NCBI GenBank assembly: GCA_016235255.1
Contig: JACRLM010000031.1
Location: 43,763-107,762 of the forward strand
Direction: 5' to 3'
DNA: 64,000 nucleotides
Source of the DNA: Nitrospinota bacterium
Lineage (GTDB): Bacteria > Nitrospinota_A > UBA7883 > JACRLM01
Below, piece by piece: positions 24,428 to 32,142 of the stretch. The notes under the pieces were generated by a model. It saw only the letters and a program-made list of their open reading frames with translations. It did not search any database and had not been told where the DNA came from. Position 1 is the first letter of the stretch. Each line of letters starts with the position of its first letter. The position numbers were made by a program, and so were the translations under genes.

Positions 24428-24787
24428 ATGAGCAAAATCAATTTAGATTTTTTCAGACAGGCCCTCGAAAAGCAGCGGGAGGACATCGTCAAGGAAGCGA
24501 CGGAGTCCGCCAATGGGGGGATCTCCGCGAATTCGGAAGAACTTCCCGACGTGGTGGACCGGTCATCGCTTGAGACCGACAGAAACTTCACCCTCCGTCT
24601 GCTGGACCGGGACAGGAAGCTTATTAAAAAGATCGAAGAAGCCATCGGCAGGATAGAAGCCGGTGAATTCGGCCATTGCGAGGATTGCGGCGGGGAAATC
24701 GGCGAAGAACGCCTGAAGGCGCGCCCCGTGGCCACCTTGTGCATCGGGTGCAAGGAAGAGCAGGAGCGCAAGGAGAAGGCCCGCTAG
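24428..24787 (+). CDS. dksA: DksA/TraR-family C4 zinc-finger transcription factor
   Basis: A coiled-coil is followed by GEFGHCEDCGGEIGEERLKARPVATLCIGCKEEQE, the C4 zinc finger. Confidence 0.8.
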   Translation: MSKINLDFFRQALEKQREDIVKEATESANGGISANSEELPDVVDRSSLETDRNFTLRLLDRDRKLIKKIEEAIGRIEAGEFGHCEDCGGEIGEERLKARPVATLCIGCKEEQERKEKAR

Positions 24788-24932: not shown

Positions 24933-25010
24933 GCGCCCGTAGCTCAGCCCGGATAGAGCGCCAGATTGCGGTTCTGTAGGTCGCAGGTTCGAATCCTGCC
25001 GGGCGCACCA
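24933..25010 (+). tRNA. tRNA-Arg, anticodon read as GCG (includes the encoded CCA)
   Basis: Manual cloverleaf: acceptor GCGCCCG/CGGGCGC, D-stem GCTC/GAGC with D-loop AGCCCGGATA, anticodon stem CCAGA/TCTGT, loop TTGCGGT, T-arm GCAGG-TTCGAAT-CCTGC, discriminator A, then CCA. Overall similarity to E. coli tRNA-Arg(ACG) is high. Confidence 0.85.
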
Positions 25011-25242: not shown

Positions 25243-26139
25243 TTAACGAATATCAACGATAATCAGGCAGTACAGCAGGGGGAGATGCACCAGGGAGAAA
25301 AAGAAGAGGCTCATCGCCACCTTCCTGCCCGAGAAAACAAACCACAGGGACAGAGAGAAGAACAGGACGCCGGCCGCCATTGCTCCGGCAAGGTAAAACA
25401 GCCCCGCCATCCCGACTACATAAGGCAGAATTGAGACCGCCGCAAGCACAAAGGCCCATATGGCTATCTGCCGCTTGGTCTCGTCCACCCCTCTTTTCAC
25501 CGGCAGGTTCATCACTCCGGCGCTTTTGTACTCATCCATGTACTTTAGGGCGAGCGACCAGAAATGCGGATGCTGCCAGGCGAATATTATCAGGAAAAGC
25601 GTGAGCGCCCAGATGTCCGGAACCGGCTTGATCGCCGCGTAACCTATCACCGGAGGAAGAGCCCCGCCCACGCCGCCCACAAAGGTGGCCAGCGGCGTGC
25701 TGCGCTTGGTCATCAAAGTGTACGGTATGACGTAAATGAACAAGGCCGCCGTGGAATATAGCGCGGCGGCCTTGTTTACATGTGCCGTAAGGATCACAAC
25801 GGAAATGGCGGAAAGCGCCAGCCCGCAATAAAGGGCCTTCAACGGGCTGATCAATCCGGAGGGGAGCGGCCGGCCTGAAGTTCGGCGCATGACAAAATCT
25901 ATATCTCTGTCGATATAGTTGTTCAATGCGGCGGCGCCCGCCGTGGAAAAAGCGGTCCCCAGAAGTGTCCAGAAGACAAGCGCGGGGGCGGGAAGCCCCC
26001 TTTGCGCTATGTACATCCCGGCCAGGGCGGAAACTATCACAAGCGCGATTATCCCCGGCTTTACAAGCGCAAGGTGGTCCAACAGGACCCCTTTAAGGCT
26101 GATCTGCCTCGCTTCAGCGGTGGATACGCGCCCGGACAT
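25243..26139 (-). CDS. ctaB: Protoheme IX farnesyltransferase (heme O synthase)
   Basis: UbiA-family motif NNYIDRDIDFVMRRTSGRPLPSG. The product is polytopic. Confidence 0.9.
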   Translation of the reverse strand: MSGRVSTAEARQISLKGVLLDHLALVKPGIIALVIVSALAGMYIAQRGLPAPALVFWTLLGTAFSTAGAAALNNYIDRDIDFVMRRTSGRPLPSGLISPLKALYCGLALSAISVVILTAHVNKAAALYSTAALFIYVIPYTLMTKRSTPLATFVGGVGGALPPVIGYAAIKPVPDIWALTLFLIIFAWQHPHFWSLALKYMDEYKSAGVMNLPVKRGVDETKRQIAIWAFVLAAVSILPYVVGMAGLFYLAGAMAAGVLFFSLSLWFVFSGRKVAMSLFFFSLVHLPLLYCLIIVDIR

Positions 26140-27033
26140 TTACGCCCTCGCCTCCTCTTGAACCAGCATGTTAAATCCAAGAAGCCCCGGGGCCGACCTG
26201 TAGGCCACCCAGCCGAGCAGCAGGAATCCAAAGGCGCCGTGGCCGACAATCAGGGGGAGGAACATGCCGGAATGCACGATTCCTATGCCCACCGCCCCCT
26301 GCGCCACCACGAGCGAAAACGTTATGACGGAATTGGCCACGTCGCTCTTGTCCTTTATCGCCTTTATCATATAACCGCCGGTGAAAAAGAACACCACATA
26401 CGCCATCAGCCGGTGGACAAAGTGAAGAGCGATACCCGGCTCCGCGAATTCCGGGATCACCTGGCCGTTGCAAAGCGGGAACTCCGCCGAGCAGGCCATG
26501 GCCGCCTGGCTGTACCTGACGAAAATCCCAAGGATCACCTGGAGAAGGATTATGGCGAACATCACAGTATAGACACTGTTTTCCTTCGCCGCCGGAGCCG
26601 TGTCCAGCCGCCGGTAGGCAAGGATCATGAGAATGAAAATGGCCGTGGCCACAATAATGTGGAACGAGATAACCATTATATGCAGAACGCCCTCAAGAAG
26701 CGGCGCCTCCAGCATGACGATCACCCCGCCGAATACCGCGCCAACCCCCAATAGCCCCAACGCCGACATCGTCAGCGCCCTGACAGGCCCCTTTGCCGTC
26801 AACCATACGGAAACCGTCGCGCCTAATATGAAAAGCCCTGTCGCGCCTCCAAGAAGCCTGTGACTCCATTCAATCCATGTCTGTATCTGAAGGGGAGGGA
26901 CTACCGTCCCGTAACACAACGGCCAGTCCGGACAACCCAGGCCGGATCCGGTCGTGGTGACCACGTTCCCCACCACCATAAGAATGTAAGTGAAAGCGAT
27001 TGAGAGCCCGATAAGTATCTTGTTCATGCGCAT
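26140..27033 (-). CDS. ctaA: Heme A synthase (COX15/CtaA)
   Basis: GSGLGCPDWPLCYG and conserved His-containing TM helices are present. Start chosen at MRMNK (ATG 27033) with AGGAA upstream. The stop abuts the ctaB start. Confidence 0.85.
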   Translation of the reverse strand: MRMNKILIGLSIAFTYILMVVGNVVTTTGSGLGCPDWPLCYGTVVPPLQIQTWIEWSHRLLGGATGLFILGATVSVWLTAKGPVRALTMSALGLLGVGAVFGGVIVMLEAPLLEGVLHIMVISFHIIVATAIFILMILAYRRLDTAPAAKENSVYTVMFAIILLQVILGIFVRYSQAAMACSAEFPLCNGQVIPEFAEPGIALHFVHRLMAYVVFFFTGGYMIKAIKDKSDVANSVITFSLVVAQGAVGIGIVHSGMFLPLIVGHGAFGFLLLGWVAYRSAPGLLGFNMLVQEEARA

Positions 27034-27158
27034 TGTTCCTCTACTGCTTTTAATGCTAACAAAGATGTATTTGAAAATATACGCAAACTTTATAAAGAAC
27101 GGCCCGGCTCCGGTATTATACCAGAGCCGGGACCGCATCATTCTACCAGGAACACGCC

Positions 27159-28742
27159 TTATATCGTGTGAGCAGTATGCTTACCGTAGTTATAAGGCGA
27201 CCAATCCGCCGACACGGTCGGAGGAGTGGGGAAGTTGCCGGCCCCCGGAGGATACACGGTGTGTGTCCACTCCAGCGACTTGGAACCCCACGGATTGTGA
27301 GGGGCCTTCTCGCCGGCGATGGCGCCGTGGATCCAGGTGATGATCGTGATGGCCATGCCAAGGGCGATGATAAGGGCGCCGACAGTGGCGATCTTCATCG
27401 CGCCTTCAAACTGCGGGAACATGGCATAGTCGAAATACCTCCTGGGCATCCCTTCCACGCCGATCCACATCAGCGGAGCGAAGGTCACGTTCACGCCGAT
27501 GAAATTGAGCAGGAAGCCCAGCTTGCCGAGGGTCTCGTTGTACATCCGGCCGGTCATAAGCGGGAACCAGAAATAGACCCCCGCAAACACCGCGAATGTG
27601 GCCATGATTCCCATTATGTAATGGAAGTGGGCCATAACGAAGTATGTCTCGGAAAGATGCAGCGTCATCGAGGTCATGGACAGCGGGATACCGGTCAGCC
27701 CGCCCGCCAGGATCAGGAACAGCTCGGAGGCCGCGTACAGCATCGGGGTGTTGTACTGGATGGAACCCTTGTACAGCGTCCCCACCATGGTCAAGACCAG
27801 CAGACCCACCGGGATGGAGATGATGATCGTCGTCATCATCATGCCGATCCTGAGCCAGTCCACAAGACCTGAAACGTACAGGTGGTGGGCCCACACGTCC
27901 GAACCGAGCACCACAGTCCCCCACACGCCGCCATAAACACAGGTCTTATAGTTGAATATGGGGTTGCGGGACATGGTGGAGAGTATCTCAAGGATGGTCC
28001 CGATGGCCGGCAGCAGAATAACGTACACCGCCGGGTGCGAATAGAACCAGAACAGGTTCTGGTATAAAAGCACGTCGCCACCCTGGGCCGGCGCGAAGAA
28101 CGCCGTGCCGAAATACTTGTCAAAGAGAACCAAAGTCACCGCCGCGGCGAGCACGGGGATGAAGATCAATTGCAGGACGAACGCGCCCAGAACGGTCCAC
28201 ACGAAGATGTTCAGTTGGTTCCAGCCCAGGCCTGGCGCCCTCATGTAGATCACGGTGCAAAGGAAGTTGACCGCGCCGAGGATGGACGAGAAGCCCATCA
28301 GGTGCACGGTGAACACGTAGAAAGAAGTGTTCCCGGCCGTCTGCACGGAGTACGGGGGATAGCCCGTCCACATGACATCAGGCGGATCCGGGATGACGAA
28401 AGTCAGAAGAGCAAGAACGATGGCGAACCAGAAGAGCCACACCGAGAACGAGTTGATCCTCGGGAAGGCCACGTCGTGCGCGCCTATCATTATCGGGATG
28501 AGGTAGTTCGCCAAAAACCCTGTCAGCCCCGGTATCAGGAACGCCAAGATCATCGCGGCGCCGTGGAAATACAACCATACGTTGTAGTTCGTGGCGTCGC
28601 TTGTGATTGTCGGCCCCAGGCCCGACTGTTCAAGCCGTATCAGAAGGGCCATTATCCCGGCGACAGCGAACGCCGCGATGGACCCTACCAGATACAGGAT
28701 GCCGATCCTTTTATGATCGGTTGAAAAAATCCAATCCTTCAT
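27159..28742 (-). CDS. ctaD: Cytochrome c oxidase subunit I
   Basis: MKDWIFSTDHKRIGILYLV, the heme-copper oxidase His ligands, and WAHHLYVSG.. / HFHYIMG motifs. AGGA RBS is present. Confidence 0.95.
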   Translation of the reverse strand: MKDWIFSTDHKRIGILYLVGSIAAFAVAGIMALLIRLEQSGLGPTITSDATNYNVWLYFHGAAMILAFLIPGLTGFLANYLIPIMIGAHDVAFPRINSFSVWLFWFAIVLALLTFVIPDPPDVMWTGYPPYSVQTAGNTSFYVFTVHLMGFSSILGAVNFLCTVIYMRAPGLGWNQLNIFVWTVLGAFVLQLIFIPVLAAAVTLVLFDKYFGTAFFAPAQGGDVLLYQNLFWFYSHPAVYVILLPAIGTILEILSTMSRNPIFNYKTCVYGGVWGTVVLGSDVWAHHLYVSGLVDWLRIGMMMTTIIISIPVGLLVLTMVGTLYKGSIQYNTPMLYAASELFLILAGGLTGIPLSMTSMTLHLSETYFVMAHFHYIMGIMATFAVFAGVYFWFPLMTGRMYNETLGKLGFLLNFIGVNVTFAPLMWIGVEGMPRRYFDYAMFPQFEGAMKIATVGALIIALGMAITIITWIHGAIAGEKAPHNPWGSKSLEWTHTVYPPGAGNFPTPPTVSADWSPYNYGKHTAHTI

Positions 28743-28817
28743 GCCTATATCCTTTCATTTCAAGCCTATTTTCCGTAAAGCCGACGAACCCCAAGCCCGC
28801 CGGCCTCTTTAAAACCG

Positions 28818-29639
28818 TTACTTTCCGGCGGCCGGAGCAGCCGGAGCGGCGGCGCCTTCAGCTGCCGGAGCGGCCGGGGCAGCGCCCTCAGCCGGAGCGG
28901 CCGGAGCCGGAGTTGCTGCGCCACTCTTGGCAAGGATCATTTCCTCAAACTTGGCTGCGGGAATGACCTTCACCTTGCCGAACATGTTCGAATGACCAAC
29001 GCCGCAATACTCGGTGCAGGTGAGCACGTTCTCCCCGATCTGCTTGGGCAGGAACCACTCGTAAGTGATGCGCCCAGGCATAACGTCTTCCTTCACGCGG
29101 TAATCGGGAAGGAAGAAGGAGTGGACCACGTCTTCGCTGTGCATCCGGAGGACAACAGGCTGCCCCTGAGGAACGAAAAGCTGCGGCCTGCCGTTGGCGT
29201 CCGCCTCGGCGACGACTCCGTTGCCGTAGTCGAACTCCCAGTTGTACATCATTGCGGTCAGTTTGACTTCCCTGGCGTTCACAGGGACGGTCCTCTGGTT
29301 GATCCACAGCTTGAAGCCATTGGCGGCCAGATACATATCGTCCGCCAGGAACACAAACACCGGGACAAGCGTCCAGGCCAGCGAGCCGCCCAGCGACAAT
29401 CCCGGAAGGCTGCCCTCTTCGTTCTCGCTCTTCCTCACGAAAGACACGAGCATGTAAATCGATATCAGCCCGAAAACAACGCCAATCGCGCCCAGGTCTA
29501 GCACCAGATGGCCCCAAAGATTGTTCCAACCCTCGGTGTGGTCATGGATAGCCCCCTCGGCGGCCGGTGCGGCTGATGACGCCATAGCCGTCAATGGAGC
29601 GGCAGCCATCATAGCCGCCGTAAACACCCATTTCTTCAT
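28818..29639 (-). CDS. ctaC: Cytochrome c oxidase subunit II (CuA) with a C-terminal Ala/Pro-rich tail
   Basis: CTEYCGVGHSNM is the CuA motif. Two N-terminal TM helices. The C-terminus is PAPAAPAEGAAPAAPAAEGAAAPAAPAAGK. The start overlaps the SCO1 stop (ATGA). Confidence 0.9.
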   Translation of the reverse strand: MKKWVFTAAMMAAAPLTAMASSAAPAAEGAIHDHTEGWNNLWGHLVLDLGAIGVVFGLISIYMLVSFVRKSENEEGSLPGLSLGGSLAWTLVPVFVFLADDMYLAANGFKLWINQRTVPVNAREVKLTAMMYNWEFDYGNGVVAEADANGRPQLFVPQGQPVVLRMHSEDVVHSFFLPDYRVKEDVMPGRITYEWFLPKQIGENVLTCTEYCGVGHSNMFGKVKVIPAAKFEEMILAKSGAATPAPAAPAEGAAPAAPAAEGAAAPAAPAAGK

Positions 29640-30487
29640 ATTTTAGTCTCCTTGCCTCTCTTCACTTTTTTCCTCTGAATATTGGCGGCGAATAAAAACG
29701 CCGCCACTCCCGTCAACAATGAACCGAAAGAAACGAAAAGCGGATAATTGAGCCGGTACTTGCCATCCTTGAAGTTATAGCTGTAGCACATGCTCATCGC
29801 TATATTGCCCGCGTCCGCCGGCTTGAGCTGCTCGAACTTGCTTTCCAATATCGCAAGCTCCATGTCCCGCGCGTCGGAAACCTGGCTTTGAAGGATTCGA
29901 AGGACCCTGCCCTCGGGGGAAATGAAATAATACGCGCTTGAGTGGAAGAACATCCTGTCGGCGGGAGACCAGAAGAACTTGAAACCAACATTCGAAGTGA
30001 GCTTTTTGATGTCCTCATGATCCTTGAAGGTGGCCACATACCAGCTGCCCTTCATGTCCGATGGAATCCCAAGGCTCTTCGAAAATATTTCCGCGCTCGA
30101 CGCATTGTCGTTCTTGTCGAAAGACAGGGTCAACACGGAAAAGTCCTTGCCGATCTTCACGTTCTTTAACGCCTGCGCCTTGTCGAGCACCTTTTTCAGG
30201 TCGCCGTTGAAGGCCGGGCAGAATCCGTCGCAAGAATAATAGGAAAGGACCATGATCACAGGCCTGCCACGCAGGTCTTTCATGGAAAATTCCTTCCCGT
30301 CGCTCCCTACGAAGGTCAGTCCGCCGTCAAGCTTGGTCCCGAGGACGTTGATCTCGTCAACCAGCAAGGTCGCCGGATCAAGCTCGGACTCGGGCGGGCG
30401 GAATCCCTGGGCGCTCCCTTGCGCCGCGAAAAACAGGATAAGCGCGGCCGCCATCACAACGGCCCGGTGCTTCCCAAACGTGTACAC
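29636..30487 (-). CDS. SCO1/SenC copper chaperone (thioredoxin-like)
   Basis: YYSCDGFCP is the CxxxC copper-binding motif. A signal peptide or anchor is at the N-terminus. The gene sits between oxidase subunits III and II. GTG start at 30487; an alternative ATG is 11 codons in. Confidence 0.75.
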   Translation of the reverse strand: MYTFGKHRAVVMAAALILFFAAQGSAQGFRPPESELDPATLLVDEINVLGTKLDGGLTFVGSDGKEFSMKDLRGRPVIMVLSYYSCDGFCPAFNGDLKKVLDKAQALKNVKIGKDFSVLTLSFDKNDNASSAEIFSKSLGIPSDMKGSWYVATFKDHEDIKKLTSNVGFKFFWSPADRMFFHSSAYYFISPEGRVLRILQSQVSDARDMELAILESKFEQLKPADAGNIAMSMCYSYNFKDGKYRLNYPLFVSFGSLLTGVAAFLFAANIQRKKVKRGKETKI

Positions 30488-30502
30488 TTGATTATCCCCG
30501 AA

Positions 30503-31276
30503 TTACCAGATGTAAACCTGGCTCACAACGAAGAACCAAACGATATCAACGAAGTGCCAGTAAATCCCGGCCCCCTTCACGAAAGTGTGGCTCACAGCCC
30601 CGCCAAGCGCCGGTATCAGTATCGCGATGAACGCGCACAGGCCGACGAGAACGTGGGAAGCGTGGAAGCCGGTTATCGAGTAGAACGCCGTGCTCTTCGC
30701 GTTGGTGCCCCACACGAAACCTTCGCTGAGAAGATGGTTGTATTCATAGGCCGTGCAGCCAAGGAATACGGCGCCCAATGCTATGCTCACCATCAGCCAG
30801 GTGTTGAACCCGCCCTTGTCTCCCTCTTCGATCCTCATTTCACCGAGGTGGTATGTGACCGAGGAAGTGACCAGTATCACGGTCATAATCAGAGGAAGGG
30901 TCACGCCTATCTCCGGAGAACCCGCAGGCGGCCACACGTCGGCGGACATCCTCATTGTCCAGTAAGCGGCGAAAAGAGACAGGAATATCATGACTTCCGA
31001 AACGATGAAGATCGGAAGGCCTGTCAGGGAGTAGCCGTGCTCATGATCCCTGTTTGCGATGCCTTCCTTCGTCCAACCAGCGACCCCCCAGATCAAAAGC
31101 GGCGTCCCAATGCCAAGGGCGGCTATGCCCATGGTGGCGTTGTGATACTGGAAAAAGAGGCCGAATGCGATTGGAATCGCGAAAAAGATGCCCGCCACCA
31201 GAATCAGCGGATAAACGCTTGATTCCCAGTGATGGACGGTATGGCCTTGGCCACCATGGCCCTCGTTATGCGCCAT
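30503..31276 (-). CDS. ctaE: Cytochrome c oxidase subunit III
   Basis: HHWESSVYPL, FYSITGFHASHVLVG and WHFVDIVWFFVVSQVYIW are present. Start chosen at MAHNEG (ATG 31276), preceded by GGGGGAGGG 5 nt upstream. The longer listed ORF (to 31339) lacks an RBS. Confidence 0.9.
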   Translation of the reverse strand: MAHNEGHGGQGHTVHHWESSVYPLILVAGIFFAIPIAFGLFFQYHNATMGIAALGIGTPLLIWGVAGWTKEGIANRDHEHGYSLTGLPIFIVSEVMIFLSLFAAYWTMRMSADVWPPAGSPEIGVTLPLIMTVILVTSSVTYHLGEMRIEEGDKGGFNTWLMVSIALGAVFLGCTAYEYNHLLSEGFVWGTNAKSTAFYSITGFHASHVLVGLCAFIAILIPALGGAVSHTFVKGAGIYWHFVDIVWFFVVSQVYIW

Positions 31277-31705
31277 AAAAACCCTCCCCCATAATGTTAG
31301 TTGATAAAAACCTAAAGCCCACCCACGCGCGCAATGCATATACGCGTGGAATTAAACCGTTTTTTCTGACCGATCCAGGACACTTTAGTTAACAAGACTT
31401 TGTTTGAATTTCTCCCCCCCCACTTTCGCTGAACCCATTTAGCGCCGGATGCCCCTCTCAAGGCCCGCGCGTTTATGAAATCAACGATTTGGAGATAAAT
31501 CAAGGTCTCTATATACCTTGATGTTCTTGACTTTTTACATTAACCGGCATGTATTGTCAAGTGATTACTTTTCGGGAAGGGAAAATTACTTGTTTACGGA
31601 TTGACAGCGCTTACAAGACAAAAACGAGGACATATGTCCACAATTGCGCAAGTTTTTTCCGGGAGCCTTTCAAAATCGTGGCCCGATGGCTCCAATGCGC
31701 CGTTT

Positions 31706-31995
31706 TTACGGCTTTTCCCGGGCAGTAATCACAATGGCGGAGCCGTCATGGTCAACTATCACATCATCCCCTATCACATCATCCCCGCCGAGCACATTTC
31801 CTTCGACGATCATCATCGAGAGTTTGTCGAGTATCTGGGCCTGGATAGCCTTTTTAGCGGCCTGACGCCGAATGTTTCGTCATACCCGGCCTGCGCAAGG
31901 TACGCGGCGGCCGCGGGAGTGACAATAATGCCGATGTTCTTTTTGGCAAGCCTTTCCTCCACATTTTCATCTGCAGCCACGCCACGCCGGCTATC
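31706..31995 (-). pseudogene. Relic C-terminal fragment of a Clp/Hsp100 ATPase (ClpB/ClpA/ClpC C-terminal D2-small domain), frameshifted
   Basis: Minus-strand translation gives ...RLAKKNIGIIVTPAAAAYLAQAGYDETFGVRPLKR; a 1-nt slip in an A-run near 31848 then continues AIQAQILDKLSMMIVEGNVLGGDDVIGDDVIVDHDGSAIVITAREKP*. This matches the ClpB C-terminus ...GYDPVYGARPLKRAIQ...ILSGE..G..I.VD. There is no upstream ATPase body (stop at 31996-31998). The listed + ORF 31601..32023 is antisense to it. Confidence 0.55.
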
Positions 31996-32142
31996 TACTC
32001 CCGGTCCAGTTTGTGGAAAATAATGGTGTCGTACAGCCTGCTTAAAAACTCATAGATAATACCTGCGGCAGGCAAGTCATGGTTTTACATGCTCATAAAA
32101 ATATACTTGACTATAAACTTAGATAGCAGCATATATTTAATC

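Follow-up and report, generated by a model that had tools for sequence, protein, structure and literature searches.

A predicted A2-type cytochrome c oxidase locus of the CyoCAB subtype in a Nitrospinota bacterium lacks the canonical K-channel residues and carries an Ala/Pro-rich tail on subunit II

The A2 "CyoCAB" subtype of haem-copper oxidase operons was described by Degli Esposti et al. in 2019 (PMC6431628) and 2021 (PMC8239418, Table S1 and the table of Fig. S7). In the cyo nomenclature the name stands for the gene order III-II-I, and the subtype was reported as "enriched in SCO genes" and as a relative of the A2 oxidase of Aquifex (PMC6431628). For its members, the supplement of PMC8239418 tabulates Leu, Met or Thr at K354, Val or Phe at T351, and Ala, Ser or Lys at E78 of COX2. 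Magnetospira QH-2, Magnetovibrio, Terasakiella, Sulfuritalea and Rhodocyclaceae are named as members. In this study, we analysed a related locus in a stretch of 64,000 nucleotides from a Nitrospinota bacterium (assembly GCA_016235255.1, contig JACRLM010000031.1, positions 43,763 to 107,762 of the forward strand), which is called the window and numbered from its first letter. Very probably, the product of the locus is a complete cytochrome c:O2 oxidoreductase of the A family, A2 type and CyoCAB subtype, for which maturation genes are also present, with an Ala/Pro-rich tail on subunit II that would be a dispensable disordered extension. Its most unusual feature, which was overlooked in an earlier note on this DNA, is a COX1 (subunit I) without the canonical K-channel Lys and Thr.

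Two other described systems resemble the locus. The caa3 oxidase of Thermus thermophilus (2YEV), the structural reference for the A2 type, has the YSHPxVY motif, D-channel and CuA site in common with the window enzyme. However, its subunit II is fused to a cytochrome c domain, its COX1 and COX3 are fused, and it keeps the K-channel Lys and Thr (VPTGVK versus IPVGLL in the window). The CoxA/CoxB oxidases of the rus operon in acidophilic iron oxidisers (Acidithiobacillus and others) are also A2-type and K-channel-less (Degli Esposti et al. 2020, bioRxiv 10.1101/2020.03.01.968255). By the published description, they share with the window enzyme the replacement of Lys by a hydrophobic residue, the loss of the COX2 entry Glu and an intact D-channel. 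They differ in belonging to another operon, in the extra N-terminal transmembrane segment listed in the row "2TM acidophilic Proteobacteria" of supplementary Table S1, and in forming a separate subclade in the published tables.

The window's open reading frame (ORF) list holds six back-to-back ORFs on the minus strand of 25243-31339, and all six were matched to families with Pfam and NCBIfam. They encode, in the direction of transcription, COX3 (subunit III, 257 aa, 30503-31276; PF00510, E 1.3e-23), a Sco-like (SCO1/SenC-like) thioredoxin-fold copper chaperone (283 aa, 29636-30487; PF02630, 24.3 bits), COX2 (subunit II, 273 aa, 28818-29639; PF00116), COX1 (527 aa, 27159-28742; PF00115, 1.1e-122), the haem A synthase CtaA (295 aa, 26140-27027; PF02628, 1e-35) and the haem O synthase CtaB (298 aa, 25243-26139; PF01040, 2.7e-55). 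The CtaA match reached 123.8 bits against a cutoff of 29.9, and CtaB scored 281.5 bits against the TIGR01473 cutoff of 210.3. The stop of the Sco gene overlaps the start of COX2 by 4 nt, and the TAA stop of COX2 is followed by 75 nt of non-coding DNA before COX1 starts. These results agree with the earlier note, which had described a complete A-family oxidase locus with haem O/A synthesis and a CuA chaperone, contiguous on one strand in the order III-SCO-II-I-ctaA-ctaB. That note had also called the order unusual. This is true when it is compared with textbook operons, but the order is not new, as it is that of the published CyoCAB subtype and is common among relatives.

To survey relatives, one genome per GTDB species was scanned with a clade-specific COX2 alignment, which found relatives in at least 265 species-level genomes, and the six window proteins were mapped onto the 80 loci returned. 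In 75 of the 80, III-SCO-II-I formed an uninterrupted run of genes in one direction. Of the five exceptions, three lie on truncated contigs, and only two loci (L023 and L062) truly differ. The hosts come from at least five phyla or classes and include Nitrospinota, Magnetococcales, Rhodospirillales/Terasakiella, Burkholderiales/Rhodocyclaceae (including Ideonella, Sulfuritalea and Sideroxydans), Gammaproteobacteria and Thermodesulfobacteriota. The ctaA-ctaB pair lies directly downstream in 14 loci, mostly of Nitrospinota and Thermodesulfobacteriota; the remaining loci have ctaB alone, or ctaA and ctaB elsewhere.

The COX1 of Magnetospira QH-2 is 66% identical to the window COX1 over 99% of its length, and loci of Terasakiella, Sulfuritalea and Rhodocyclaceae were among the COX2 matches. 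The window locus also shares with the subtype the order COX3-(SCO)-COX2-COX1, the Sco gene inside the cluster, the A2 Tyr-Ser motif, and hydrophobic residues at K354 and T351 (Paracoccus numbering; Leu and Val in the window), with E78 of COX2 not conserved. By gene order, sequence closeness and K-channel pattern, the locus is assigned to the CyoCAB subtype. The gene order and the loss of the K-channel are thus not new; both have been published from sequence analysis, the latter in a supplement. Three differences were found. Nitrospinota are not named as hosts in PMC6431628 or PMC8239418; members from Nitrospinota and Thermodesulfobacteriota add ctaA-ctaB downstream, behind a terminator-like hairpin; and the Ala/Pro tail of COX2 is a peculiarity of a sublineage that is not described for the subtype. 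The host range of the published subtype is therefore joined by Nitrospinota with an appended ctaA-ctaB. In the literature on Nitrospinota oxidases and on Ca. Nitricoxidireducens, we found nothing specific to the window enzyme.

We then examined the residues of COX1. Its best solved relative was the Thermus caa3 oxidase (2YEV_A, 413.7 bits), with ba3 at about 27 bits or less, and the alignment to solved A-family enzymes (2YEV, 7JRO and 8HCR) runs from end to end at residue level. The six His ligands of the low-spin haem, the high-spin haem and CuB are present as H60, H236, H286, H287, H372 and H374, and are at least 90% conserved across the clade. The His-Tyr cross-link Tyr of the HPxVY motif in helix VI is present as well. 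This helix reads FWFYSHPAVY, the A2 Tyr-Ser signature that replaces the A1 glutamate (GHPEV to YSHPxV). Motifs were counted in the best 120 COX1 homologues (64-100% identical), and the K position and the subunit II Glu were also counted separately in 73 species-level loci. A YSHP(A/V)VY-type motif occurred in all 120 homologues, and YSHPAVY was exact in 118 of them and in 73 of 79 loci. The D-channel residues are intact (N79, D90 and N97; LANY...AHDVAFPRINS aligned to GN...xDxAxPRxN), and GxxDVAFPRxN was found in 120/120 homologues.

The earlier note had proposed a check of the D- and K-channel residues in subunit I. Unlike those of the D-channel, the Lys and Thr of the K-channel are missing. 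Helix VIII reads IPVGLLVL versus VPTG(V/I)K(L/I)F in the references, so that the Lys is replaced by Leu315 and the Thr by Val312. The Glu at the K-channel entry of subunit II is replaced by Ser in the second transmembrane helix of COX2 (SLAWTLVP versus IEVIWTLVP). Lys was found at the K position in none of the 120 homologues and none of the 73 loci, where Leu, Met, Ile, Thr, Cys or Val stands instead. Likewise, none of the 73 loci has Glu at the COX2 position three residues before the Trp; Ser, Ala, Met, Val or Thr occupies it. These alignments indicate that the canonical K-channel is absent across the clade and is not a peculiarity of one metagenome-assembled genome (MAG). Three positions of COX1 near the binuclear centre that are hydrophobic in the references are polar in the clade. 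Asp/Glu282 lies four residues N-terminal of His286, in GEVW.HH or SDVW.HH, in about 105 of the 120 homologues (about 88%). Tyr289 directly follows the CuB His pair (HHLY versus HHMF in the references), and Ser309 lies in helix VIII, three residues ahead of the lost K-channel Thr.

COX2 has an N-terminal signal peptide, two transmembrane helices and a CuA cupredoxin domain. Its CuA motif is complete (H..CTEYCGVGHSNM), and the ligands are invariant in the clade alignment. The best solved relative was again the Thermus caa3 oxidase (2YEV, 77.5 bits), and the match to TIGR02866 (112 bits) fell below the cutoff. The protein ends in ...PAPAAPAEGAAPAAPAAEGAAAPAAPAAGK followed by TAA, which gives a tail of 33 residues (241-273, encoded at 28821-28919 on the minus strand), the sole Ala/Pro-rich stretch in the window. 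No CxxCH was found in COX2 or, in any frame, in the 75-nt spacer at 28743-28817, which is too short for a cytochrome c domain. COX2 is thus not of the caa3 type, in which CxxCH is fused to the subunit II C-terminus, and it does end, as first described, in a tail with nothing attached. Two independent assemblies, SRR12113394 and SRR12113407, contain a 273-aa protein identical to this COX2 and, downstream of it, the same COX1; in NCBI the exact protein is annotated as hypothetical, from a MAG of a Nitrospinae bacterium. Because assemblies from different sequencing runs gave the same protein and neighbours, the tail is real and not an assembly artefact. A cytochrome c domain concealed in the downstream DNA, which would have refuted the earlier note, was not found either.

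An AlphaFold2 model of COX2, built with the clade alignment, had a mean predicted local distance difference test score (pLDDT) of 82.6, with confident transmembrane helices and cupredoxin domain. Residues 241-273 scored 46-58 and had no secondary structure. A repeat search showed that the tail DNA consists of overlapping 9-nt periodic GC-rich repeats coding for Pro-Ala-Ala units; Tandem Repeats Finder gave only weak arrays here (scores 35-49). The motif AAPAAEGA, which is part of the tail, also occurs behind the signal peptide of COX2, at the start of the mature protein (residues 22-30), where it is encoded by a 16-mer at 29558-29573 related to the tail repeats. In one Nitrospinae homologue (P0017), an Ala/Pro/Glu-rich insertion of about 70 residues was found at the N-terminus, with no C-terminal tail. 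The N-terminal motif and this insertion suggest that low-complexity periplasmic extensions arise at either end of the protein.

Tails are patchy in the clade. An Ala/Pro-rich extension of at least 15 residues was present in 18 of 67 clade COX2 homologues, fewer than 15 extra C-terminal residues were present in 43 of the 67, and one homologue has a 75-residue Ala/Glu-rich tail. Length and sequence vary, and the tails cannot be aligned between sublineages. CxxCH after the CuA motif was found in 0 of the 67 homologues and in 0 of 64 genomic loci. The tail is kept in the nearest relatives (P0001-P0008, COX2 55-80% identical), where it varies by insertions and deletions of repeat units. We propose that the tail is an intrinsically disordered periplasmic extension which would have arisen in one sublineage of Nitrospinota when GC-rich codon repeats for Pro-Ala-Ala expanded. 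Catalysis probably does not depend on it because most clade members have no such tail, and it is most likely without a specific partner. It should no longer be read as the mark of a cytochrome that was lost or is tethered.

Three other explanations of the tail were considered. It might be a C-terminal propeptide that is removed during maturation, as C-terminal processing is established for subunit II of the aa3 oxidases of Paracoccus and Rhodobacter, and the disorder and variability of the tail would fit such a role. Nevertheless, we consider this unlikely: neither a cleavage motif nor a dedicated protease gene was seen in the locus, and many COX2 homologues have no extension that could be removed.

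The earlier note had suggested that the tail is a remnant of a lost caa3-type cytochrome c domain or of its linker. COX2 without its tail was used as the query of an exhaustive HMMER search against 1.84 billion representatives. The clade collapsed to about ten representatives at 148 bits or more and was separated by a gap from an outgroup at 132 bits or less. Most of the closest out-of-clade COX2 relatives were caa3-type: among the 123 outgroup members with a CuA motif, 95 have at least one CxxCH after it. Since these make up most of the outgroup, the loss of a fused cytochrome c in the clade ancestor is plausible, and to this extent the suggestion gains support. That the best solved relative of COX1 is a caa3 enzyme points the same way. 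The tail itself is very unlikely to be the relic of that event, because the linkers of caa3-type relatives are short and not Ala/Pro-rich. Between the cupredoxin end and the haem motif they have a median of 13 residues and a median Ala plus Pro fraction of 0.13, and none of the 95 has a linker of at least 15 residues with at least 50% Ala plus Pro. The lack of haem motifs after CuA in all clade homologues and loci counted, the short C-termini of 43/67 homologues, the failure of the tails to align and their 9-nt repeats also argue against a relic. The tail does start where the Thermus linker (AKASPAPVADERGQQ) starts, but this says little because any C-terminal extension must begin at the cupredoxin end.

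The tail was also suggested to tether the oxidase to a separate electron donor, for instance the multihaem cytochrome of the window, as a flexible docking arm might do. Ala/Pro-rich segments are flexible linkers in membrane-anchored cytochromes c and in the E2 component of 2-oxoacid dehydrogenases, and the tail is retained within a sublineage. The cytochrome in question is encoded by the ORF at 571-1671 on the plus strand (given as 664-1671 in the earlier note), which has 11 CxxCH motifs and matches c3/c7-type families. It lies 24 kb away from the oxidase genes on the opposite strand and has no Ala/Pro-rich segment. More than 20 kb of other ORFs separate the two, and those scanned with Pfam were unrelated housekeeping genes (ABC transporter, glycosyl hydrolase, O-antigen ligase and DksA). 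Nothing is attached to the tail, the tail has no conserved motif, and most enzymes of the clade do without it. A stand-alone cytochrome c with a matching linker was also looked for in the window, in which this ORF is the only one with CxxCH and no second Ala/Pro stretch exists. A tethering role is thus highly improbable. The multihaem cytochrome gene is followed by a gene for a spermidine-synthase-like membrane protein.

A candidate donor was found in other members of the clade. About 22 beta- and gammaproteobacterial loci (L013, L023, L024, L028, L037, L041, L046, L047, L052-L054, L056, L062-L066, L068-L070, L076 and L078) have a divergent dihaem gene about 0.75-1 kb upstream of COX3 on the opposite strand. 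These genes encode two CxxCH motifs in stop-to-stop frames of 220-294 aa, with trimmed proteins of about 215-230 aa. Two of the proteins, from L013 and L070, were scanned with Pfam; each has two class-I cytochrome c domains, and they look c4-like. The neighbouring dihaem protein is a credible dedicated electron donor in these relatives. No equivalent of the dihaem gene was present in the window or in the Nitrospinota loci, and the corresponding spacer of the window holds the remnant of a ClpB gene.

The remaining alternative concerns the enzyme itself, which could be a haem-copper nitric oxide reductase (NOR) of the sNOR type and not an oxygen reductase. The sNOR cluster is norSY-senC-orf1, so that a Sco/SenC gene inside a haem-copper cluster with a CuA subunit is common to both, and the gene content is superficially alike (subunits I and II, a Sco protein and a membrane protein). 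The loss of the K-channel shows altered proton delivery, and the clade is found in organisms of micro-oxic and nitrogen-cycling habitats. Nevertheless, the sNOR and other new NOR families are without the active-site Tyr and have B- or C-family ancestors (Murali et al. 2024, PMC11214002). The cross-link Tyr that is absent from sNOR, eNOR, bNOR, gNOR and nNOR is invariant in the HPAVY motif of the window COX1, whose match to the A2 caa3 enzyme (413.7 bits against about 27 or less for ba3) is clearly of the A family, and an sNOR identity was rejected as scarcely credible.

An A2-type cytochrome c oxidase of the CyoCAB subtype is therefore the reading that we prefer. In this enzyme, a separate soluble or anchored periplasmic class-I cytochrome c would donate electrons to CuA, and in the beta- and gammaproteobacterial relatives this donor is probably the adjacently encoded c4-like dihaem protein. 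Electrons would pass from CuA to haem a and on to the haem a3-CuB site. Sco would load CuA, and CtaB and CtaA would make haem A. Protons are predicted to enter through the D-channel. With neither the Lys and Thr nor the subunit II Glu in place, the protons of the reductive phase would need an alternative route; speculatively, it may pass through Asp/Glu282, Tyr289 and Ser309.

Several points weigh against this reading. Oxygen reduction, haem content and proton pumping are all predicted from sequence, and we know of no member of the CyoCAB subtype that has been purified or characterised. The Sco-like protein is barely above its family cutoff (24.3 versus 22.8 bits for PF02630), and no dedicated electron donor for the oxidase was identified in the 64-kb window. 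The persistence of the tail in P0001-P0008 leaves room for some selective value. Finally, loss of the K-channel lysine in the K362M mutant of R. sphaeroides reportedly abolishes turnover. Because such a loss abolishes turnover in well-studied A-type enzymes, an unmodified mechanism should not be assumed here. To our knowledge, all A-type enzymes investigated to date depend on this lysine.

It is possible, although we suggest it only tentatively, that the clade is an A-family oxidase working without the canonical K pathway, with protons delivered along a route of clade-specific polar residues. If this is true, the clade would be a natural experiment on a question that the field has addressed only with K-channel mutants, and the enzyme could differ in its kinetics or have a role of its own at interfaces that are micro-oxic or where iron or nitrogen is cycled. 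A large and phylogenetically broad A-family clade without the K-channel lysine, previously noted only in supplementary tables, is worth experiments, and biochemical or structural work on a member would reveal how an oxidase can rebuild the delivery of protons to its active site.

The Sco-like protein has the features of Sco1/SenC proteins, namely a thioredoxin fold, CxxxC and a distal His copper ligand. Its best solved relative was not a classical Sco1 but 3ME7 (71 bits), a protein that we attribute to the cox cluster of Aquifex aeolicus. Weaker structural matches were 4HDE (35 bits) and the B. subtilis Sco 1ON4 (30 bits). The CxxxC and the His aligned with those of 3ME7; the metal motif is CDGFC, and the distal His lies in FFHSS, aligned to FIHPN. 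SY[YF]xC[DE]GxC was found in 76 of 77 related loci. A regular expression for the His motif matched only 22 of the 77, and a distal His is claimed for the window protein alone, from the 3ME7 alignment. The usual N-terminal membrane anchor or lipoprotein signal of Sco proteins was not found in the window protein, which starts with a cleavable-looking signal peptide. At its C-terminus there are about 70 extra residues ending in a hydrophobic anchor, which are kept in 74 of 77 loci. Sco proteins are usually anchored at the N-terminus, and the topology seen here is the reverse.

COX1 and ctaA are separated by a spacer of about 130 nt, which holds a 13-bp GC-rich hairpin (CCCGGCTCTGGTATAATACCGGAGCCGGG, 27103-27131 on the minus strand, found in a terminator-like scan), followed by a T-rich tail. 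Eight Nitrospinota loci (L001-L007 and L011) have GC stems of 12-16 bp followed by T-runs at the same position. The hairpin is likely an intrinsic terminator or attenuator, and it looks as if it separates a unit of structural genes from a unit for haem synthesis. Together with its counterparts in the eight loci, it suggests that these two sets of genes may differ in expression level. A sigma-70 scan returned 4 sites versus 5.0 expected from shuffles, and we make no promoter claim.

Gene starts were also inspected. The true start of COX3 is the ATG at 31276, with the ribosome-binding site GGGGAGGG upstream, and an independent gene call also gave 257 aa. The true start of CtaA is probably the ATG at 27027, because the independent call gives 295 aa. 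Two Cys pairs are visible in the CtaA translation.

On the ctaB side, the locus is followed by a tRNA gene at 24933-25007 on the plus strand (Rfam RF00005, 65.7 bits), which lies between the end of ctaB and a DksA/TraR-type zinc-finger gene at 24428-24787 and was the sole match in an Rfam scan of the whole window. On the COX3 side, a 750-bp spacer separates COX3 from a divergent TetR gene. The ClpB-type chaperone remnant in this spacer (31700-32030, minus strand) has two frameshifts and no N-terminal part, and its C-terminal D2-small domain matched PF10431 with 62.9 bits when stitched.

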